Source: an uncultured Methanosarcinales archaeon
GTDB taxonomy: Archaea; Nanobdellota; Nanobdellia; Woesearchaeales; DSVV01
Length of the DNA: 64,000 nt
Reading direction: 5' to 3'
Assembly (NCBI GenBank): GCA_964556185.1
Contig: CAZKVI010000003.1
Span: 2,089-66,088 of the forward strand
The notes under the pieces were generated by a model, which did not search any database, was not told where the DNA came from, and was given only the letters and a program-made list of their open reading frames with translations. Position numbers and translations under genes: made by a program. Each line of letters opens with the position of its first letter. Position 1 is the stretch's first letter. Below, piece by piece: positions 3,452-60,844 of the stretch.

Positions 3452-3540
3452 AATTCACTCAAAGAACACATCGCGACCGTTGCGAGGGGTTGCTCCCTCC
3501 GGGAACGCAGGTCCTTTGAAACATCATCCAGAATTTTGAA
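3432..3540. ncRNA. Candidate structured RNA: GC-rich stem-loop island in an AT-rich intergenic region
   Basis: tagcagc..ttgagctcaaaattc pairs with gaattttgaagctgcta to give a ~100-nt hairpin. It encloses a GC-rich inner stem (gaccgttgcgagggg ... ccctccgggaacgcaggtc). Local GC is far above the genome background. Confidence 0.25.
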
Positions 3541-3741
3541 GCTGCTATATTTATTATGATCAAACTTGTTTATATACTTCACACCAACCTGTCCAGTGTA
3601 AACAATAATACAAGCTATAACAACAAAATATAGCTAATACAAGCCATATCAACCACTCGCCAACACCTTGTCCAATACATTATTTACATATAAAAAAACT
3701 AAAATTCTGTCCACTGGATGCTAAGAAATAATAAGTAATTC

Positions 3742-6700
3742 CTAAACCTTCTCACAACTTATCAAAACTTCCATCTTTTTAATCTTCTCTTTAGAACAAT
3801 CTTGTAATGTGTCTGCTTCAACACCAACAAAGATCTCAACAGCCCCACATTTGTCTTTAATATCATCTTGCCATTTGATTAACATATCAACATATGATTG
3901 AGTACTCTGCAAATGCAATTTAATATTATCTTTTTTCTCCAATCCTAACTTTTTCCTAAATGCTTGAACTCTTCGCATGACTTCTCTGGAATAACCTTCT
4001 GCATCTAAGTCAGGAGTTCTTGTTTTATCTAAAAACAATTGTCCATGTCTATATTCTGCTTCAACTAAGTTCTCAGGCAGTTCTTTCTCAATAATAAAGT
4101 GCTCTTTTTTCAAACTTACTTTATGTCCATCTAAAACAACAGTATGTGCACCTTTTTCAACATCTGCCAAGATTTTCTCGTCAGCAACTTGTATTAATCT
4201 AGTAATTATTTTAGGAACTAATTCACCATATTCTTGACCAATTGTTCTATGGTTTGGTTTCATTTTTATCTTAACTTCAGTACACTTATCAACTAATTCA
4301 ATATGTTTGACATTTGTTTGTTTTTTAATAGTTTCATCTAACTTAGTAATAGATTCAATAGTATCATTATCAGTAACTACAATCCTAATTTTACCAACAG
4401 GCCATCTTACTCCTAGTTGTGCTCTTTCACGAGCAGCTAAAATACTTTGAATTGTATCTTTTGCAATAGAAAACTCTTTTTCTAAAGAGTTATCAATAAA
4501 CTTTGCATCAAATTTAGGCCAATCAAACAAATGAATACTCTCAACCTCAAGATCAAAGTACTCTTTCAAATCTTGATACATTCTCTCAGCTATAAATGGA
4601 GAAACAATTGCAAACATTTTCAAATTCTCTAAAAATGTTTCAAATATAACATTAAATACAACTTGTTTTTGTTCTTCCAACCCAAGAGCTGCTTTCTCAC
4701 GAACCAATTGAATATATGTTCTTGATAATTCCATAAATATTTCTTCAACTTTCAAAGGAACTTCATTTATCTTATAACTATCCATTAATTCTGTTATTTC
4801 TTTAATACCAGAATGTAATTTTGAAATCATATACTCTTCTTCTTGTTCTAAACAATTCTTATCAATTCCAGTGAATTTCAAACCATTATTCTTAGCTAAA
4901 TCAATTATAAACTTGTGCAGATTCCAATACACACCTAAATTCTTATATTTTAATTTACAGTCATCAAAATTATAATTAATATCAATTCCAGGATTAGCTC
5001 CACCAATCATATAATATCTTAATGTGTCTGCTCCGTATTTATCAACAACTTCTTGAGGTAAAATATAATTACCAAGAGATTTACTCATCTTACGTCCCTG
5101 TGAATCTTGTACAAAACCATGCATGTAAACATTTCTAAAAGAAGGTTTTTCCATGCTTACCATAGAAGCAACATGTAATAAATTAAACCAACCTCTAATT
5201 TGATCTTTTCCTTCTAAAATAAAATCAGGTGGAAACAAATTCTTAAAATTCTCTTCTTTATGTGGATAATCCAAACAAATCCATGAAGTACAACCAGCAT
5301 CTACCCAAACATCTAAAATATCTGGAATTCTTTTTTTAACACCACCACAATCACATTTGATTGTTACTTCATCAATCCAAGGTTTATGTAATTTCTCTAC
5401 TTTTTGTCCTGATAACTTTTCTAATTCAGCAACATCACCGACGACAATATAATTATCACACTCTTCACATCTCCATACTGGTACTGGTGTTCCCCAGAAT
5501 CTTTGTTTTGTAATAGAATTGTCTCTTAAGTTTTCTAACCATGAATTAAAAGCATTATAAGCAGCTTGAGGTACCCATTTAATTTTATTATTCTCTTCAA
5601 TTAACTTTTCTTTCATATCATCTACTTTAAAGAACCATTGTTTTGTAGTTTTATAGACAACAGCTTCATGACATCTCCAACAATGTGCATAACTATGATT
5701 AGTTTTACTTTGTGCAATTAAAGTGCCATTCTCATCCATTAGTTCAACAAATTTCTTATCATCTTTCTTAGCAACTAAACCAGAGAACTTTGAATCATCC
5801 TTTGGATATGTGCCATTTTCATCAATAAGATTAAATGGTTTAATACCTTTTCTTACACATAATTCATAATCAGAATCCCCGCAACCAGGTGCAAAATGCA
5901 CTAAACCAGTACCATCATCTAAATGTACATATTCATCTGATAATAAAACTGTATAAATCTTATCTTGTGTTTTTCTTGCTTCTTTAATTTGAGGAAATGA
6001 ATTTTCAAAAGAAGGAATATATTCTTTGCCTTCTAATTTCTTTCCTTTGAATTCTTCAACAATTTCATAATCTTTTCCTGCTTTTAATTTAATAACTTCT
6101 TCTGCAAGGTCTTTTGCAACAATCCAATGTTCATCACCAACTTTACATTTAACATATTCAAAATCAGGATGTACAACAACTGCTAGATTAAAAGGAATTG
6201 TCCATGGAGTTGTTGTCCAAATGATTAAATAATCATTTTCAGTTCCTCTTAATTTAAATCTTAAATAAATAGAATCATCAGTAATATCTTGGTATTCTAA
6301 TTCATGCTTTGCTAATGCTGTTGCACACGAAGCACACCAAGTCATTGCTCTTTCTCCTTCATACAATCTTTTATTTTCATGTGCTTTTTTAATTAACCAC
6401 CATTCTCCTTCAATAAATTCTTTTGAAATAGGTTGGTAAGCATTTTCAAAGCCCATCCATACACCTAATCTAGTAAAATCCTTATTCATTACATGCATAT
6501 TTTCTATAGATAGTTTTTTACATTCTTCAATAAACTTAGCAACACCAAACTTCTTGATTCCTTCTTTTCCATTAATTCCTAGTTTCTTTTCAACTGCATG
6601 CGCTGTAGGTAATCCATGCATATCATAGCCAGCTCTATCCCAAACATTGAAACCAGCCATTCTTTTATATCTAAGAACCATATCTTTTAGTGATTTGTTC

Positions 6701-27926: not shown

Positions 27927-28235
27927 ATGCAAAAAGCAAGAATAAAGATAGCAAGTACAGACATAGACAAGATTAATAATACTTGTAGGTATATTTCTGA
28001 TATAGCTGATAAAACTGGTGTTGATATGCGTGGTCCTATTCCTTTACCAACTAAAAAATTAAAATTAACTACTCGTAAAACTCCTTGCGGAGACGGAAAA
28101 GCTTCCTGGGAAAGATACGAAATGCGAATTCATAAAAGATTCATTGATCTCGGCTTAGATGAAAGAGCTTTAAGATTGGTTATGAGGGTACCAATACCTG
28201 AAGGCTTGAACATAGAAATTGAAATGATTGATTAA
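27927..28235 (+). CDS. rps10: 30S ribosomal protein S10 (uS10)
   Basis: MQKARIKIASTDIDKINNTCRYISDIADKTGVDMRGPIPLPTKK matches S10. It is directly downstream of EF-1alpha, as in the conserved archaeal arrangement. Confidence 0.9.
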   Translation: MQKARIKIASTDIDKINNTCRYISDIADKTGVDMRGPIPLPTKKLKLTTRKTPCGDGKASWERYEMRIHKRFIDLGLDERALRLVMRVPIPEGLNIEIEMID

Positions 28236-28336
28236 GTTTGTTCTTGATTAACTCTTAGAATTGAGGCCGAAAGGCTCGAAGTCGAAGACTTCGCCCGCCT
28301 GAAGGCTTGAACATTGAGATTGAAATGATAGACTGA
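28197..28336 (+). repeat. Direct repeat: the last 13 codons of rps10 (28197..28235) duplicated at 28298..28336, separated by a 62-bp GC-rich hairpin-containing spacer
   Basis: Copy 1 is cctgaaggcttgaacatagaaattgaaatgattgattaa. Copy 2 is cctgaaggcttgaacattgagattgaaatgatagactga. The five differences are all synonymous and include stop TAA versus TGA. Confidence 0.8.
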
Positions 28337-29485: not shown

Positions 29486-30367
29486 TTATCCTTGATAAAA
29501 ACCAATTAACTGTCTTTGTCTCTTAACATGTCTTAATTTTCTTAAGGCTTTTACTTCGATTTGTCTTATTCTTTCTCTTGTTAAATCAAATACTTGACCA
29601 ATCTCTTCAAGAGAATAATGACGAGGATGATCAATTCCATATCTCATTTTCATAACTTTTTCTTCTCTGGGTGTTAATTCAGCAAGTACACTTCTAACAG
29701 CCTTTGCTAAATCAGAATCCCCTACATTTTCATCAGGTCTTCGAACACTAGCTCCTTCTATAAAATCACCTATGGTTGCATCTGATTCATCACCAACTTT
29801 TTGCTCTAATGATAATGGTTCTCTTGCAAGCCTATAAATATCTTCAATTTTTTCAACTGGTTCACCTAACCAATCTGCAATTTCTTCAGAAGTTGGTTCT
29901 CTACCAAGATCAGTAACAAGTTTTCGAGCCGTTCTTCTAACTTTAGTAACCATTTCTAATTTATAAATTGGAATTCTTATTGTTCTTACTGTAGCTTCTA
30001 TTCCTCTAATAACACTTTGTCTAATCCACCAAGAAGCATATGTAGAAAATTTATATCCTCTTCTATATTCAAATTTTTCAACAGCTCTTATTAAACCTAA
30101 ATTACCTTCTTGAATTAAATCACCAAGTGGCAAGCCTCTATATTGGTATTGTCTTGCAATACTAACAACTAGTCTTAAATTGCCTTTTATTAAATCTTCT
30201 TTAGCTGTAGCTGCTTCATAAGGAGTGCCTTCTTCCATTGTTGTAGCTAATCTAACTTCATCATCTCTAGATAATAATGCTACAGCCCCCATTTGATTCA
30301 TATACTTCCTTAGAACTCTAGGATCATCTCTATATCTTGGCCCACCTTGATAATGACTAACACCCAT
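29486..30367 (-). CDS. Bacterial-type RNA polymerase sigma-70 family factor (regions 2, 3 and 4, RpoD-like)
   Basis: [40 protein letters not shown] aligns nearly residue-for-residue with RpoD region 2.1-2.4. [14 protein letters not shown] matches region 3. [15 protein letters not shown]...[29 protein letters not shown] matches the region 4.2 HTH. GC-richer codon usage. Confidence 0.8.
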
Positions 30368-44934: not shown

Positions 44935-45070
44935 CGCCAGGGACGGGAGTTTCAGTAACTTCAAAGAGTTACACCCCATCAGTTGACATTTGAACCCACG
45001 TGACATTCAGGGGACGAATGTCAACTGGATCATCAGTCCAGCGTCTTGAGCCAGACTCGACCACCCTGGC
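44935..45070 (-). ncRNA. tRNA-like structured RNA (possible multi-intron tRNA, anticodon-like arm with GAU), with a partial duplicate at 45120..45175
   Basis: Minus strand has a 7-bp terminal helix GCCAGGG/CCCUGGC, UG, a D-like arm GUCG-AGUCUGGCUCA-AGAC, a stem-loop CUGGA-CUGAUGA-UCCAG and GUGGGUUCAAAU. About 60 extra nt include an 8-bp hairpin UGACAUUC/GAAUGUCA. A BRE/TATA ccgaaaactttatata in minus orientation lies at 45247-45262. Confidence 0.3.
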
Positions 45071-45224
45071 CTCGCCAACAGTAAAGTTTATATACTTGTT
45101 TGAATATACAATTAATTAAGGGGACGAATGTCAATTTGGATTATCAATCCAGTTTCTTTGGCCAACTTGGCCTTTTTTCTTTTTCAATATTCATTTTATA
45201 TATTGGCTCTATAAAGAACCATTA

Positions 45225-48553: not shown

Positions 48554-48640
48554 CGCCACGACCCGGACTTTCAAACCACAGGTTTGAACCTTTTGGTTTT
48601 TGAACCGGGATACAATATGAGCTTTGCTCATATGTACAAA
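48554..48640 (-). pseudogene. tRNA 3'-end-like fragment (duplicate of the tRNA-Ser T-arm and acceptor 3' strand with a ~31-nt insertion in the T-loop), ending in oligo-T
   Basis: Minus strand reads GUAUCCCGG-UUCAAA[31 nt]U-CCGGG-UCGUGGCG-UUUUUUU. The intact tRNA-Ser just upstream has AUAUCCCGG-UUCAAAU-CCGGG-CCACAGCG. Confidence 0.3.
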
Positions 48641-48770: not shown

Positions 48771-48897
48771 GGTGGCAGTGGCGGGATCTGAACCCGCGGC
48801 TTCTAGATCGCCCAGATATAAAGTTTAATCATCGGCATGAGCCTCATCACTCAAATCTTATGAGTCTAGCACTCTAACCAGGCTGAGTTACACTGCC
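48771..48897 (-). tRNA. tRNA-Met (CAU anticodon; possibly Ile2 if C34 is modified) with a ~50-nt intron at 37/38, encoded CC, and an oligo-T terminator
   Basis: Acceptor GGCAGUG/CACUGCC plus A plus CC. D-arm ACUC-AGCCUGGUUA-GAGU. Anticodon stem CUAGA/UCUAG. Loop CUCAUA[intron]A. T-arm GCGGG-UUCAGAU-CCCGC. The intron contains GUGAUGA (C-box-like). Confidence 0.65.
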
Positions 48898-58214: not shown

Positions 58215-58715
58215 ATGGTCGAGAGAAGAATTGTTGTAGATACAATGAGGATGCATTACCAAGGTCTTCTTAATGTAGTTGAATTTATGGAATTTGTAGA
58301 TCGTTGGCTTCGTGAAAAAGGTTATTATAAAAAAATTGGCAGAACAGATGAAAAAGTTTTCAAAGAAAACAGACAAGTAGAAATTGAATGGGAACCTTGG
58401 AAAAAAGTTGATGAAAATGCAAAAATAGTTATTCAAATGAAATTCTTATTCACAAATGTAAAAGATGTTGTTGTAGAAAAAGACGGAATGAAGAAAAAAC
58501 TTCAACAAGCCAAGATCTCAGTTACAATGATGGGACTTATGGAATCAGACTGGGAACACAAATGGGAAAAAAGACCTTTTTACTTCTTATTCTTCTCAGT
58601 TATTGATCAGTTTGTCTGGAAAATTCATTCTGATAAGTACTTTGGTTTAGTAGCAGAAGACTGCACAGAACTAAGAAACGAAATGAAAGCTTTCTTGAAT
58701 TTGTATAGGTTCTGA
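58215..58715 (+). CDS. Hypothetical protein (paralogue 2 of a tandem pair)
   Basis: 166 aa, colinear similarity with 57659..58192. Confidence 0.4.
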   Translation: MVERRIVVDTMRMHYQGLLNVVEFMEFVDRWLREKGYYKKIGRTDEKVFKENRQVEIEWEPWKKVDENAKIVIQMKFLFTNVKDVVVEKDGMKKKLQQAKISVTMMGLMESDWEHKWEKRPFYFLFFSVIDQFVWKIHSDKYFGLVAEDCTELRNEMKAFLNLYRF

Positions 58716-58773
58716 GTCACAATACAAACATTTTTAAATATTCTAAATTTCATTTGAAAAAGACCAGATATTT

Positions 58774-58938
58774 GTGGGGGTAGCCCGTAAGAAGATTCTT
58801 TGGGTTCCCTAGAGCAAAGTCTGGTCAAATGCGCAGGACTTAAGATACACTGAAGACAGCCTTCACGGCAAAGTCTTTGTTTTGAATTAGACATCCTGTC
58901 ACTTAGTGTGTTCGGGGGTTCGAATCCCCTCCCCCACA
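58774..58938 (+). tRNA. tRNA-Leu (anticodon UAA) with two introns: ~29 nt between positions 9 and 10, and ~48 nt at 37/38
   Basis: Acceptor GUGGGGG/CCCCCAC plus A. After UA comes an insert [GCCCG...CUAGA]. D-arm GCA-AAGUCUGGUCAAA-UGC. G-CAGGA-CUUAAG[intron]A-UCCUG. Variable arm ~15 nt. T-arm GGGGG-UUCGAAU-CCCCU. Mature length ~88 nt fits a class II tRNA. Confidence 0.55.
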
Positions 58939-59068
58939 TTTTATTCTTTATTTTCTATTTTATGTGCGTACTGCTTTGCAAAGCAAATGCAGTACTCGCT
59001 GACTTTTTCCCAAGTTTTTACGAACGTAAAAAGCTGGTGGGGATCATCCTCCCCCACATTTTCTTTTT
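58926..59068 (+). repeat. Direct repeat of the tRNA-Leu 3' end (CCTCCCCCACATTTT at 58926..58940 and 59054..59068) bracketing a 110-bp spacer with a long palindromic hairpin
   Basis: Spacer contains gcgtactgc-tttgcaaagcaaa-tgcagtactcgc. The second copy forms an acceptor-like minihelix ggtgggg-atcatcct-cccccac. Confidence 0.5.
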
Positions 59069-59083
59069 GATTTTGATTAAGAA

Positions 59084-60844
59084 TTAAGGTTCAGTTGGTT
59101 CATCTAGTGATGCACTTGTTTCTAAGCCACTTCTTCTTAAACCTTTAAGAGTATAAGTTGGATCTTCAAGATAACTCTCACACTGTGCTTTAATTCCAAG
59201 AGCAGCCATAAGCATTTTATCTTTATCATCGTAAATTTCTCTAATAGAATCTCTATCTTTCATTGTTCTTGGATTAAATACTTCTGATAAAATTCCATCA
59301 AAAGAAAATTCATCTGCTGATTCAGATTGTTCTGTTACTTCACCAAATCCTCCTTTTGCTTTATAAGTTTCATAAAGCCTATGGATTTTATAAACTTTAT
59401 AATGGCTTAAGGAAGAAGAATCACTTGTATGGTAAGAACACAAATGATCAATTATTTGGTTTGTTTCTTCTAAAGTTTTTCTTACTAATACAAAGTTTTG
59501 AACATCTGGAATTTCACGACCTTCTTCGGCTTTCCATCTTCTGTAAGCATTTACAAGAATAACATTTTTGTATAATCTGTATAATCTTTCAAATCCTGCA
59601 TAATATTTTGTTCCTTTTCTAACATTTATTATTGGGTGTTTTTCAGCTAATGCATTTGCTCTTTCCTTTAATTGAGTTCTTATATCTCTTGTCCCATGTA
59701 AATCTTGTCCACTATATGCTGCAATAATTTCATCATAAGTTATTTCTTCAATTGACTCACCATCATCAGTTAATCTTTTTCTTTTCTTACTTCCATGTTC
59801 TCGTCTGCGAATTTCATCAGTATTTGCATGACAATCTGCAAACTTAACCATTATAGCTCTTTCTATATCTTCTTCTTTTATTGCTCTCTCTTTTCCTCCC
59901 CAACAAATTATTCCATCCCAGTCACTAGGTCTAAATATTTTGTTTACAGAATCATAATAATTTTGTTTAGTCCCCTTTGTCAAAAGATAACTAGTAACAG
60001 CAACTCCTCCAATCATTTCAACCATTGTACTATCAATAGCACCACCAAGGTCTTTCATGTAATTTTCTAAACAATTATAAATCCCATGATCGACAAAAAT
60101 ATCAGCTACTCTTTCCCCTTTTGTCATTAATTTACCTCTAACTTCAGATTTCTCTGAGAAACCATGTTTTCTTATTTCATCCCTCTTTTCTTGGATAAAT
60201 TTCTTCTTCTCAATAATTTCTTCTTCAACTCCCTCTAGTTCTTCCATTCTTTCTGCAACCTTTGCTTTATAACCATCTCTTCTTTTCCCTTCTAATTGTT
60301 TAATACTTCTTGTTAAGAAACCATGTCTTTCTATCAATCCACCAAGTTCTTCATGTTCAGCCATATTATAAATTCTAACAGTGTCTCTGATATAATGATC
60401 AATAAATTCTTCAGCAGTATCATGATATAATGCTGCAATAATTGTTGTAAGATCAGTAACACCAGCTTTGATGAGTGTTCTTGTAACTCTTAGTGGATGT
60501 TGTACAAAAGGTGCTCCTGTTAATTTTCTATCTGGTGCAATTCTATATTTCTCAAAACTATCATACAATGCAACTTTTAAGAATGTTTGTTCATCATCTT
60601 CTAAAGCAGAATAAGCTTCTTCTTGACCTCTATAAAGCATTCCAACAACGCTTTCGAGTTTTTCTTCTTTGTCTTTAAAATCAACTTTAAAGCTATCATC
60701 AGAATCTTTGTTTGTAAAGAAAGCAACCATTCCATGATCTATTCGACTTAAATAAAGCTCATTTCTTCCAATAAGCCTTTCAAGATTTACATGGCCACTA
60801 TGTGGACTTGGACTAACACCCATCTTCTCTTCAAATAATCTCAA
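59084..60844 (-). CDS. HD-domain protein of the RelA/SpoT (Mesh1-like (p)ppGpp hydrolase) type with long non-catalytic extensions
   Basis: HPLRVTRTLIKAGVTDLTTIIAALYHDTAEE matches the RSH hydrolase H-x(n)-HD motif. KFADCHANTDEI matches K-L-A-D-R-L-H-N. No synthetase domain recognised. GC-richer. Confidence 0.55.
   Translation of the reverse strand: MRLFEEKMGVSPSPHSGHVNLERLIGRNELYLSRIDHGMVAFFTNKDSDDSFKVDFKDKEEKLESVVGMLYRGQEEAYSALEDDEQTFLKVALYDSFEKYRIAPDRKLTGAPFVQHPLRVTRTLIKAGVTDLTTIIAALYHDTAEEFIDHYIRDTVRIYNMAEHEELGGLIERHGFLTRSIKQLEGKRRDGYKAKVAERMEELEGVEEEIIEKKKFIQEKRDEIRKHGFSEKSEVRGKLMTKGERVADIFVDHGIYNCLENYMKDLGGAIDSTMVEMIGGVAVTSYLLTKGTKQNYYDSVNKIFRPSDWDGIICWGGKERAIKEEDIERAIMVKFADCHANTDEIRRREHGSKKRKRLTDDGESIEEITYDEIIAAYSGQDLHGTRDIRTQLKERANALAEKHPIINVRKGTKYYAGFERLYRLYKNVILVNAYRRWKAEEGREIPDVQNFVLVRKTLEETNQIIDHLCSYHTSDSSSLSHYKVYKIHRLYETYKAKGGFGEVTEQSESADEFSFDGILSEVFNPRTMKDRDSIREIYDDKDKMLMAALGIKAQCESYLEDPTYTLKGLRRSGLETSASLDEPTEP

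Follow-up and report, generated by a model that had tools for sequence, protein, structure and literature searches.

A tRNA-Leu(UAA) gene with two introns and a probable small insertion element at its 3' edge on an archaeal metagenome contig

What kind of gene lies at positions 58774-59068 of a 64,000-nt stretch of archaeal DNA (contig CAZKVI010000003.1; the whole stretch is hereafter called the window), where the parts of a leucine tRNA are interrupted twice and the end of the tRNA is repeated a short distance downstream? We conclude that it is probably a functional two-intron tRNA-Leu(UAA) gene (58774-58938, + strand) with a 105-nt mobile insertion at its 3' edge. One intron, of 31 nt, is located near the 5' end of the gene, and the other, of 48 nt, occupies the canonical position 37/38. 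The region is flanked by a 166-aa open reading frame (ORF) of no assigned function (58215-58715, +) and by a convergent HD-domain ORF (59084-60844, -), and the locus is present in identical copies on three metagenome contigs. Loci of relatives are labelled L004-L028; syntenic ones were retrieved through homologues of the neighbouring 166-aa protein, which is 93% identical to that of the window in L004, L006 and L022 and 78% identical in L008 and L023. With more distant homologues of this protein (58% identity or less) synteny is gone and no tRNA-Leu locus was recovered, while the downstream HD-domain protein, used as a query, matched nothing except itself. The parts of the gene are as follows.

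58774-58781, + strand: exon 1, tRNA positions 1-8 (GTGGGGGT); the junction is taken from orthologues lacking the intron, and the boundary may lie up to 3 nt more 3'.
58782-58812, + strand: intron 1, 31 nt at position 8/9; present in L008, absent from L004, L006, L022, L023 and L014-L019.
58813-58844, + strand: exon 2, positions 9-37, with the D arm, the 5' strand of the anticodon stem, UAA and G37.
58845-58892, + strand: intron 2, 48 nt at 37/38 (38/39 gives the same product), called by ARAGORN; the junction CTTAAGATCCTG comes from the intron-less L016.
58893-58938, + strand: exon 3, positions 38-73, running from the 3' strand of the anticodon stem through the variable arm and the T arm to the acceptor stem's 3' strand and discriminator A.

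Standard searches miss this gene. Neither default ARAGORN nor ARAGORN with its anticodon-intron option called a tRNA at 58774-58938, and Rfam, searched at the curated gathering thresholds and at E values up to 10, returned no tRNA or other family over 58650-59200. Elsewhere in the window the same tools find tRNA-Lys, tRNA-Ser and tRNA-Met (canonical introns) and tRNA-Ala. After deletion of about 31 nt near positions 8-12, ARAGORN reports a tRNA-Leu(taa) with a 48-nt intron in the anticodon loop (i 42,48). The doubly spliced product (GTGGGGGTAGCAAAGTCTGGTCAAATGCGCAGGACTTAAGATCCTGTCACTTAGTGTGTTCGGGGGTTCGAATCCCCTCCCCCACA) is 86 nt long without CCA, which is not encoded, and it forms a class II cloverleaf whose anticodon loop holds U33, UAA and G37 and whose discriminator is A. 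The spliced tRNA of L004 has exactly this sequence, and the tRNAs of the other relatives are nearly identical to it. The original prediction of a tRNA-Leu(UAA) with two introns, one of them non-canonical, thus agrees with both the ARAGORN call after deletion and the intron-less orthologues, and its intron of about 48 nt after position 37 was recovered as 48 nt at 37/38 by ARAGORN and by the L016 junction; the predicted mature length of about 88 nt has to be corrected to 86 nt without CCA, while the class II assignment stands.

Orthologues without intron 1 (L004, L022, L014-L017 and L019) are recognised by the Rfam tRNA model RF00005 with scores of 45.5-59.2 bits. A custom covariance model built from the orthologous mature tRNAs matched the window exons as separate hits, at 58867-58932 (35.7 bits) and 58814-58852 (23 bits), and did not bridge the introns of the window copy. 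The failure of standard tRNA finders and Rfam on this gene, together with an imperfect bulge-helix-bulge motif, could suggest that the 31-nt insert has disabled it, leaving a tRNA pseudogene at 58774-58938 while another copy does the work. The pattern of divergence points the other way: there is no difference between the exons of the window and those of L004, whereas intron 2 differs at 4 of 48 positions from that of L004, intron 1 at 9 of 31 from that of L008, and the flanks have also diverged. This contrast between identical exons and diverged surroundings indicates that the exons are under purifying selection and that the gene is not a pseudogene. In addition, the insert is still 31 nt long in L008, despite a neighbouring protein only 78% identical, and there it shows compensatory changes and the same splice-site geometry, while other non-canonical introns, up to three per gene, are found in relatives. 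We consider a pseudogene extremely unlikely.

The position of intron 1 deserves closer attention, since cuts at 8/9, 9/10, 10/11 and 11/12 all yield an identical spliced product. At the start of the gene, L004, L006 and L022 read GTGGGGGTAGCAAAGTCTGG without the 31-nt insert, which defines the exon junction; the allele without intron 1 reads ...ACTCCTTATGTGGGGGTAGCAAAGTCTGG... across the tRNA-Leu 5' region. Only the 8/9 site gives a proper bulge-helix-bulge, with a 4/4 central helix and a flanking exon helix whose length is 5 bp (window) or 4 bp (L008). In this model the 5' acceptor strand would pair with the 3' end of the intron (G3-G6, GGGG, with CCCU), which would place both cut sites in 3-nt bulges, G7-U8-A (GUA) and A-G-A. 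The outer helix is formed by the leader and first nucleotides, U(-3..-1)-G1-U2, with G10-C11-A12-A13-A14 (5 bp), and the inner helix is the intron's own hairpin, offset by one bulged U. An equal fit to the 8/9 geometry was seen in 2-3% of shuffled introns. The 31-nt intron of L008 has nine differences, including a C-G to U-A double change and a shifted hairpin bulge, and it retains the same minimum-energy architecture and the same 4/4 central helix as the window intron despite compensatory changes. The modelled geometry favours 8/9 over 9/10. The removal of about 29 nt at 9/10, as proposed earlier, therefore captured a real intron with a slightly short length and at a site which is ambiguous by sequence and better placed at 8/9 by geometry.

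For intron 2, the intron-less gene of L016 sets the anticodon loop as CTTAAGA. The outer helix is the anticodon stem itself, the central helix has 3/4 pairs (C-G, U-A, U·U and A-U), and the bulges are A36-G37-A (AGA) and A-C-A38 (ACA). An internal hairpin in this intron shows one compensatory and two wobble changes among four sequences; in a count of pairs over these four the structure is compatible with the alignment and not significant (131 of 500 shuffles did equally well). Following the established pathway (PMC4090602), both introns would be spliced out by proteins: the archaeal splicing endonuclease would cut them and an RNA ligase would join the exons into the 86-nt class II tRNA, with expected junctions GUGGGGGU|AGCAAAG (U8-A9) and CUUAAG|AUCCUG (G37-A38). 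No splicing endonuclease gene turned up among the window ORFs that were scanned.

Among the relatives, the intron content of this single gene varies. Orthologues of tRNA-Leu(UAA) occur in four intron states, namely none, 37/38 only, 8/9 plus 37/38, and 37/38 plus 59/60. The gene in L016 lacks introns altogether, while L004, L006, L022, L014, L015, L017 and L019 have the canonical intron only, which in the first three is the 48-nt intron of the window with 4 substitutions and in the other four is unrelated to it in sequence. L023 lacks intron 1 and has, besides the canonical intron, a 31-nt T-loop intron at 59/60 (GGGGGTTCGAA[ATTGG...GCATG]TCCCCT), for which a structure drawn by hand gives the T stem as outer helix, a 3/4 central helix and an inner helix UUGG/CCAA. 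Other tRNA genes of the relatives behave similarly. The tRNA-Met of L026 has a 35-nt palindromic D-loop intron that is missing from the window tRNA-Met (48771-48897, -), and L028 (2936-3280), a more distant relative whose HIT protein is 61% identical, has canonical and T-loop (59/60) introns in its tRNA-Met and, after it, a tRNA-Lys-like gene whose D loop, anticodon loop and T loop carry three inserts. Non-canonical introns are thus common in this clade and differ from one close relative to the next, with a fast turnover.

Immediately downstream of the gene, the locus contains the following features.

58928-58942, + strand: direct repeat copy 1 (CCTCCCCCACATTTT), made up of the tRNA's final 11 nt and 4 nt of its trailer.
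58943-59047, no strand assigned: probable insertion, 105 nt non-coding, with a T-rich left end, hairpin 1, the conserved linker CGCTGACTTTTTCCCAAG, hairpin 2 and a right end with GTGGGG (59037-59042).
59048-59062, + strand: direct repeat copy 2, which with 59037-59047 makes a 6-bp acceptor-like minihelix.

The two copies of the repeat, which begins 2 nt into the 3' strand of the T stem, are identical at 15/15 positions and lie 120 nt apart from start to start. By chance about 0.07 matches would be expected in the window, and at least two copies occurred in 0 of 100 shuffles. The surplus of the window over L004 and L022 amounts to exactly one repeat unit and 105 nt, and the flank 3' of copy 2 (CTTTT...GATTAAGAATTAAGG) is the one that follows the tRNA directly in these two loci. 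The site at tRNA-Leu is empty in L004, L006, L022 and L023. Judging from these alignments, the downstream copy is one end of an insertion and not a feature of the tRNA. Two other identities were considered for this copy and rejected: that of a decayed T arm with a 59/60 intron, for which inspection revealed no T-stem or central-helix pairing, and that of the 3' half of a split tRNA, against which stands that it has only 15 nt in common with the tRNA and is preceded by the element and not by a T arm.

The inserted segment is highly structured, its whole fold being much stronger than that of shuffled sequence (z = -5.99). Hairpin 1 covers 58968-58995, or 58964-58999 when 3 further bp are counted; its 12-bp stem contains one bulged U and is capped by an AAA loop, with an energy of -17.4 kcal/mol (z = -4.05), and hairpin 2 (59010-59037) has the stem TTTTTAC/GTAAAAA. 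At 59037-59058, the GTGGGG of the insert pairs with the CCCCAC of copy 2 in a minihelix GTGGGG-N9-CCCCACA, which the covariance model of the orthologous tRNAs matches in its acceptor stem only (10.3 bits, E ~0.05). The tRNA 3' end repeated beyond a spacer, the palindrome and the acceptor-like minihelix had all been pointed out in the original prediction; the spacer is 105 nt and not 110 bp, and the palindrome, given as 8 bp with a 13-nt loop, is better described by the 12-bp hairpin above. Hairpins with a GC-AAA-GC apex follow both tRNA-Leu and tRNA-Ser in the window, which made this apex a candidate family sign; it was discarded because the same apex also occurs in unrelated hairpins (in L023, in L018 and in the tRNA-Lys intron of L028) and is thus no evidence of homology.

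A homologue of the element was found at a different tRNA gene. In L026 (2730-2808), a segment in reverse orientation matches it with 77% identity across 69 nt (E = 1.3e-8), and a further copy in L027 is cut by the end of the contig. The common core of about 75 nt comprises hairpin 1, the linker CGCTGA-TTTT-C-CAAG and hairpin 2 (core pieces CGCTGANTTTTNCNCAAG and TTTTACGAACGTAAAA). In both loci (L026 2713-2860, L027 1677-1722) the element is situated between a 17-nt copy of the 5' end of tRNA-Met and a complete tRNA-Met, and the window tRNA-Met represents the corresponding empty site. Hairpin 1 stays fully paired although most of its stem positions differ between the window and L026, and it faces the functional gene in both. 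The flanking repeats, GGCAGTGTAAC(T/C)CAGCC in L026/L027 and CCTCCCCCACATTTT in the window, have no common attachment (att) core. No other copies of the insert were found in the window, in viral contigs (three patterns) or in the retrieved loci besides L026 and L027, and no parent insertion sequence was found in the window or the viral contigs. Since each of the two sites has filled and empty alleles and a repeat derived from its own target, the insertion is most likely a small, non-coding and non-autonomous mobile element. We propose that the 105-nt two-hairpin element would insert at the 3' edge of the tRNA and leave 15 nt of the target directly repeated on either side, where the upstream copy completes the tRNA and so would keep the gene intact. 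The T-rich left end of the element would supply a terminator, the minihelix would be a by-product of the right end adjoining the repeat, and the family would be moved in trans by a recombinase or transposase.

Duplicated gene ends are also seen elsewhere in the window, as had been noticed before. Past tRNA-Ser(GGA), at 48554-48640 (-), come a T run, a 12-bp hairpin with an AAA loop (48611-48637) and a copy of the T arm and the 3' acceptor strand (48554-48610); a 31-nt insert interrupts this copy at 59/60 and has a perfect 4/4 central helix of the bulge-helix-bulge type, and four transitions set its acceptor strand apart. It has the appearance of a 3' end that was displaced or was brought by a mobile element. 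The region 28197-28336 (+) holds a duplication of the end of the ribosomal protein S10 gene (27927-28235): its final 13 codons and the stop recur 62 nt downstream, past two small hairpins and outside any ORF, with five differences that are all synonymous, including TAA to TGA. The S10 and tRNA-Ser duplications lean towards recombination with diverged alleles. A third case concerns a class-II-like tRNA missed by ARAGORN and Rfam (44935-45070 and 45115-45172, both -). It has the acceptor GCCAGGG/CCCTGGC, a discriminator G, the anticodon loop CTGATGA, a 25-nt hairpin in place of the variable arm and a T-loop insert of about 40 nt, and ARAGORN calls it, as tRNA-Ile(gat), only when 32-43 nt are removed. 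Part of this gene, comprising the D arm, the anticodon arm and half of the hairpin, recurs in diverged form about 45 nt upstream (16 nt exact, 19/20 over the repeat).

Similar events are found among the relatives. In L019, a Nanoarchaeota metagenome-assembled genome (MAG), an independent duplication of the tRNA-Leu tail (CCCCTCCCCCACA, 13 nt) lies past a 44-nt unstructured spacer (4500-4600, -), and the MAG of L017 has an identical tRNA and intron without the tail duplication. In L018 (~3513-3580; also in L020 and L021), an inverted partial copy of a T arm and acceptor (TGGGGAGGGGATTCGAAC) is placed about 45 nt 3' of tRNA-Leu(CAA) on the opposite strand, and may be the end of a convergent disrupted tRNA or some other fragment. 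In L025 (628-1147; HIT protein 94%), no tRNAs follow the HIT gene, and a protein-coding gene stands where the window has its tRNA-Met and tRNA-Ser cluster; rearrangement of this tRNA neighbourhood is therefore seen even among close strains.

On the other side of the tRNA gene, intron 1 is associated with a possible source of mobility. In L008, an ORF of 209 aa (1188-1817) between the 166-aa gene and the tRNA matches Pfam LAGLIDADG_3 (E = 1.9e-13), its best relative of solved structure being the intein endonuclease PI-PkoII (PDB, E = 4e-5). This ORF extends across the 8-nt exon 1 and ends at a TAG within intron 1. The window retains a trace of it:

58730-58773, + strand: remnant of the LAGLIDADG 3' end, 44 nt, aligning with the last ~14 codons of the L008 ORF and containing an in-frame stop.

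A TATA-like TTTTTAAATA occurs at 58731-58740 inside this remnant, which has probably been kept because it now carries the tRNA promoter. Intron 1 and the LAGLIDADG flank both occur in the window and in L008, and neither occurs in L004, L006, L022 or L023, which have a common, different upstream flank (...ACTCCTTAT). The identity of the neighbouring protein is 93% between the window and L004, 84% between L008 and L023, and 78-79% between the groups. The cassette of intron 1 and endonuclease is thus patchy across the tree, a distribution that needs allele exchange (homing or recombination) or a long-lived polymorphism to account for it. Intron 1 is probably a recent insertion that travels with the LAGLIDADG gene directly upstream of the tRNA, and the link between the two is suggestive. 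In a homing scenario, naive genomes would have their uninterrupted tRNA-Leu 5' region cut by the endonuclease, the repair would bring in the endonuclease gene, the 8-nt exon 1 and intron 1 together, and intron 1 would shield the carrier allele while being harmless, because the host splicing endonuclease removes it. That a protein-spliced tRNA intron spreads here with the assistance of a homing endonuclease and that, separately, the 105-nt element represents undescribed mini-elements which target tRNA ends and make duplications of 15-17 nt, is a proposal that we regard as speculative and, taken as a whole, unlikely.

How else might the insertion be explained? The 105 nt could be the leftover of an internally deleted integrated element, or a cis-mobilisable mini-derivative of one, instead of a transposon with a target-site duplication. 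Archaeal integrated elements favour tRNA 3' ends and, less so, tRNA 5' ends and 3' ends of protein genes, and their att sites may be only 8-17 bp (PMC6563490, PMC9897764); all three target types are found in the window and its relatives. The synonymous-only differences between the S10 copies would arise if one copy came from a diverged allele on the element, as expected for an att remnant, and the tRNA-Ser fragment, with its T-loop intron and different acceptor strand, resembles the attP/attB model of Caldiarchaeum (PMC3293823). Yet the insert is only 105 nt and holds no gene, and a core of about 75 nt is present at two targets with unrelated repeats (15 nt at tRNA-Leu, 17 nt at tRNA-Met) that lie within 4-25 nt of the core both times, a pattern which two independent decays are unlikely to leave; nor was an integrase found among the window ORFs of at least 170 aa. 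An att remnant is therefore possible but in our view doubtful. Another explanation would make the spacer a small RNA gene or a co-transcribed RNA, released from the tRNA transcript through cuts at the tRNA 3' end (RNase Z) and at the minihelix (RNase P/Z). The strong fold of the segment, the pairing of hairpin 1 kept through many changes relative to L026, with one G-U pair possible only in the window orientation, and the resemblance of the minihelix to the tRNA's own acceptor stem would be in keeping with this. T runs of four to five, however, occur three times within the putative transcript (58939-58942, 59006-59010 and 59016-59020), and T runs of this length terminate archaeal transcription. 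The Rfam search found no family here up to an E value of 10, no C/D or H/ACA box arrangement was seen by eye and no pseudouridylation pocket is present, so that both box classes were rejected; the segment is missing in strains related at 93%, and its homologue in L026/L027 is antisense to and upstream of the tRNA, and co-transcription with the tRNA is therefore not a common property. No support emerged for a spacer hairpin that is co-transcribed and processed, and we judge an RNA gene very unlikely. Without any mobile element, slippage during replication or a tandem duplication of the tRNA tail would account for a short direct repeat at 120-nt spacing, but the 105 nt copy nothing upstream, and their homologue in other genomes lies beside another tRNA gene, which makes this hardly credible.

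A functional two-intron gene with a mobile insertion beside it is the reading that we favour, and several observations weigh against it or its parts. Both splicing motifs are relaxed, with an extra bulged U opposite the 5' bulge of intron 1 (or 1-nt bulges in its minimum-energy fold) and a U-U mismatch in the central helix of intron 2, and the splice-site flanks of intron 2, being invariant across the four compared sequences, are uninformative either way. The element has no terminal inverted repeats, its sole inverted repeats being the two internal hairpins, and transposase and Cas1, like integrase, were not found among the window ORFs of at least 170 aa. Only two insertion sites were seen, in different genomes, and the endonuclease link depends on two lineages with the cassette against several without it. 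Finally, the synonymous-only differences of the S10 repeat fit recombination with a diverged allele better than a target-site duplication, and the repeats at tRNA-Leu could therefore also be att sites.

As a gene with several introns, the locus is of a known kind, here in a DPANN host, and the insertion is a very small version of the known insertion at tRNA ends. Multi-intron archaeal tRNA genes (PMC4090602) likewise combine a canonical 37/38 intron with a non-canonical one, have exon-intron helices that put the cut sites in 3-nt bulges, are invisible to standard finders and vary in intron content among orthologues; different here are the Woesearchaeota/Nanoarchaeota-like host and the relaxation of both motifs. 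The 8/9 (to 11/12) site is not among the non-canonical sites given in that review (3/4, 20/21, 22/23, 25/26, 29/30, 30/31, 45/46, 53/54, 56/57, 59/60, 'etc.'), a list that is explicitly incomplete (PMC4090602). In the tRNA-Thr(GGU) of Caldiarchaeum subterraneum, it was proposed that a mobile element brought in an intron along with a tRNA fragment, its attachment site differing from the host gene by an intron (PMC3293823). That case resembles ours in that related genomes vary in intron number and in a tRNA-fragment repeat across an insert, and in the tie between intron gain and a mobile element. The Caldiarchaeum insert, however, is 1.8 kb with a recombinase and a 5' fragment, compared with 105 nt of non-coding DNA and a 15-nt 3' fragment here, and in our case the homing-endonuclease gene to which the intron is linked lies across the tRNA from the insert.

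Among mobile elements, tRNA fragments commonly flank those that are integrated (PMC9897764, PMC6563490). As with elements at att sites, the insert lies between direct repeats of the end of the gene, one of which makes the gene complete; the differences are that no integrase was found in or near the insert and that the copies have no common att core. Similar in size, direct repeats and filled/empty sites are the CIMEs, cis-mobilisable mini-elements flanked by att sites. The casposon target of Aciduliprofundum boonei also shows a 15-bp duplication over a tRNA 3' end next to the T-arm palindrome (PMC5137440). Casposons are large, however, with terminal inverted repeats, Cas1 and PolB, none of which occur here; 11 nt of the duplication fall within the tRNA here, against 5 nt in A. 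boonei, and, unlike that target, the second copy of our element has a 17-nt repeat at a tRNA 5' end. MITEs (miniature inverted-repeat transposable elements; PMC10969869) agree in being about 100 bp, non-coding and structured, with direct repeats and filled/empty sites, and presumably moved in trans, whereas our element lacks terminal inverted repeats and its repeats are longer than the 2-10 bp of MITEs. For intron 1, the closest parallel is collaborative or trans homing in phage T4 mobE / I-TevIII (PMC2790892; for review see PMC3984707), where an endonuclease gene beside a short intron is co-inherited with it; those introns are self-splicing group I introns, while the present one is predicted from its sequence to be of the protein-spliced archaeal type.

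The host is most likely an AT-rich DPANN archaeon, Woesearchaeota/Nanoarchaeota-like, given the archaeal markers in the window and the matches to archaeal MAGs. The G+C content of the window is ~31%, and its genes include EF-2, EF-1alpha, ribosomal proteins S10, L1 and L10P (with the archaeal/eukaryotic insert), TFIIE-alpha and Rpb7. The last 22 nt of the tRNA-Leu(UAA), compared with species-representative genomes, matched only archaeal MAGs, four of them labelled Woesearchaeota or Nanoarchaeota and two 'uncultured Methanosarcinales'. The nearby HIT protein has named homologues in Nanoarchaeia and Woesearchaeota, among others, and also some in the Patescibacteria group. An ORF at 29486-30367 (-) has all four bacterial sigma-70 regions (r1.2, r2, r3 and r4; E 1.9e-8 to 3e-21), while the rest of the contig around it consists mostly of archaeal translation and transcription genes; it may be a bacterial gene gained horizontally. 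DPANN lineages show more disruption of tRNA genes and incomplete predicted tRNA sets, and a loop-bearing EndA was reported in those with disrupted tRNA genes (PMC5829648), in line with the expectation that non-canonical introns are limited to particular archaeal lineages.

An essential gene that is missed by ARAGORN and Rfam helps to explain the incomplete tRNA sets of DPANN genomes (PMC5829648), and comparing close relatives can recover tRNA genes which are hidden from the finders. One orthologous tRNA gene with four intron states also offers a rare close-range view of gain and loss of protein-spliced introns. In these reduced genomes the ends of tRNAs and other genes appear to be active targets of insertion or recombination, and very small inserts, not just islands of 10-20 kb, can leave tRNA fragments behind. 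The mechanism by which archaeal tRNA introns undergo 'transposition' is still unknown according to review (PMC4090602); the physical and phylogenetic coupling of the 8/9 intron to an endonuclease gene suggests a testable mechanism of movement which, if true, would provide a DNA-level route for the 'transposition' of protein-spliced archaeal tRNA introns.

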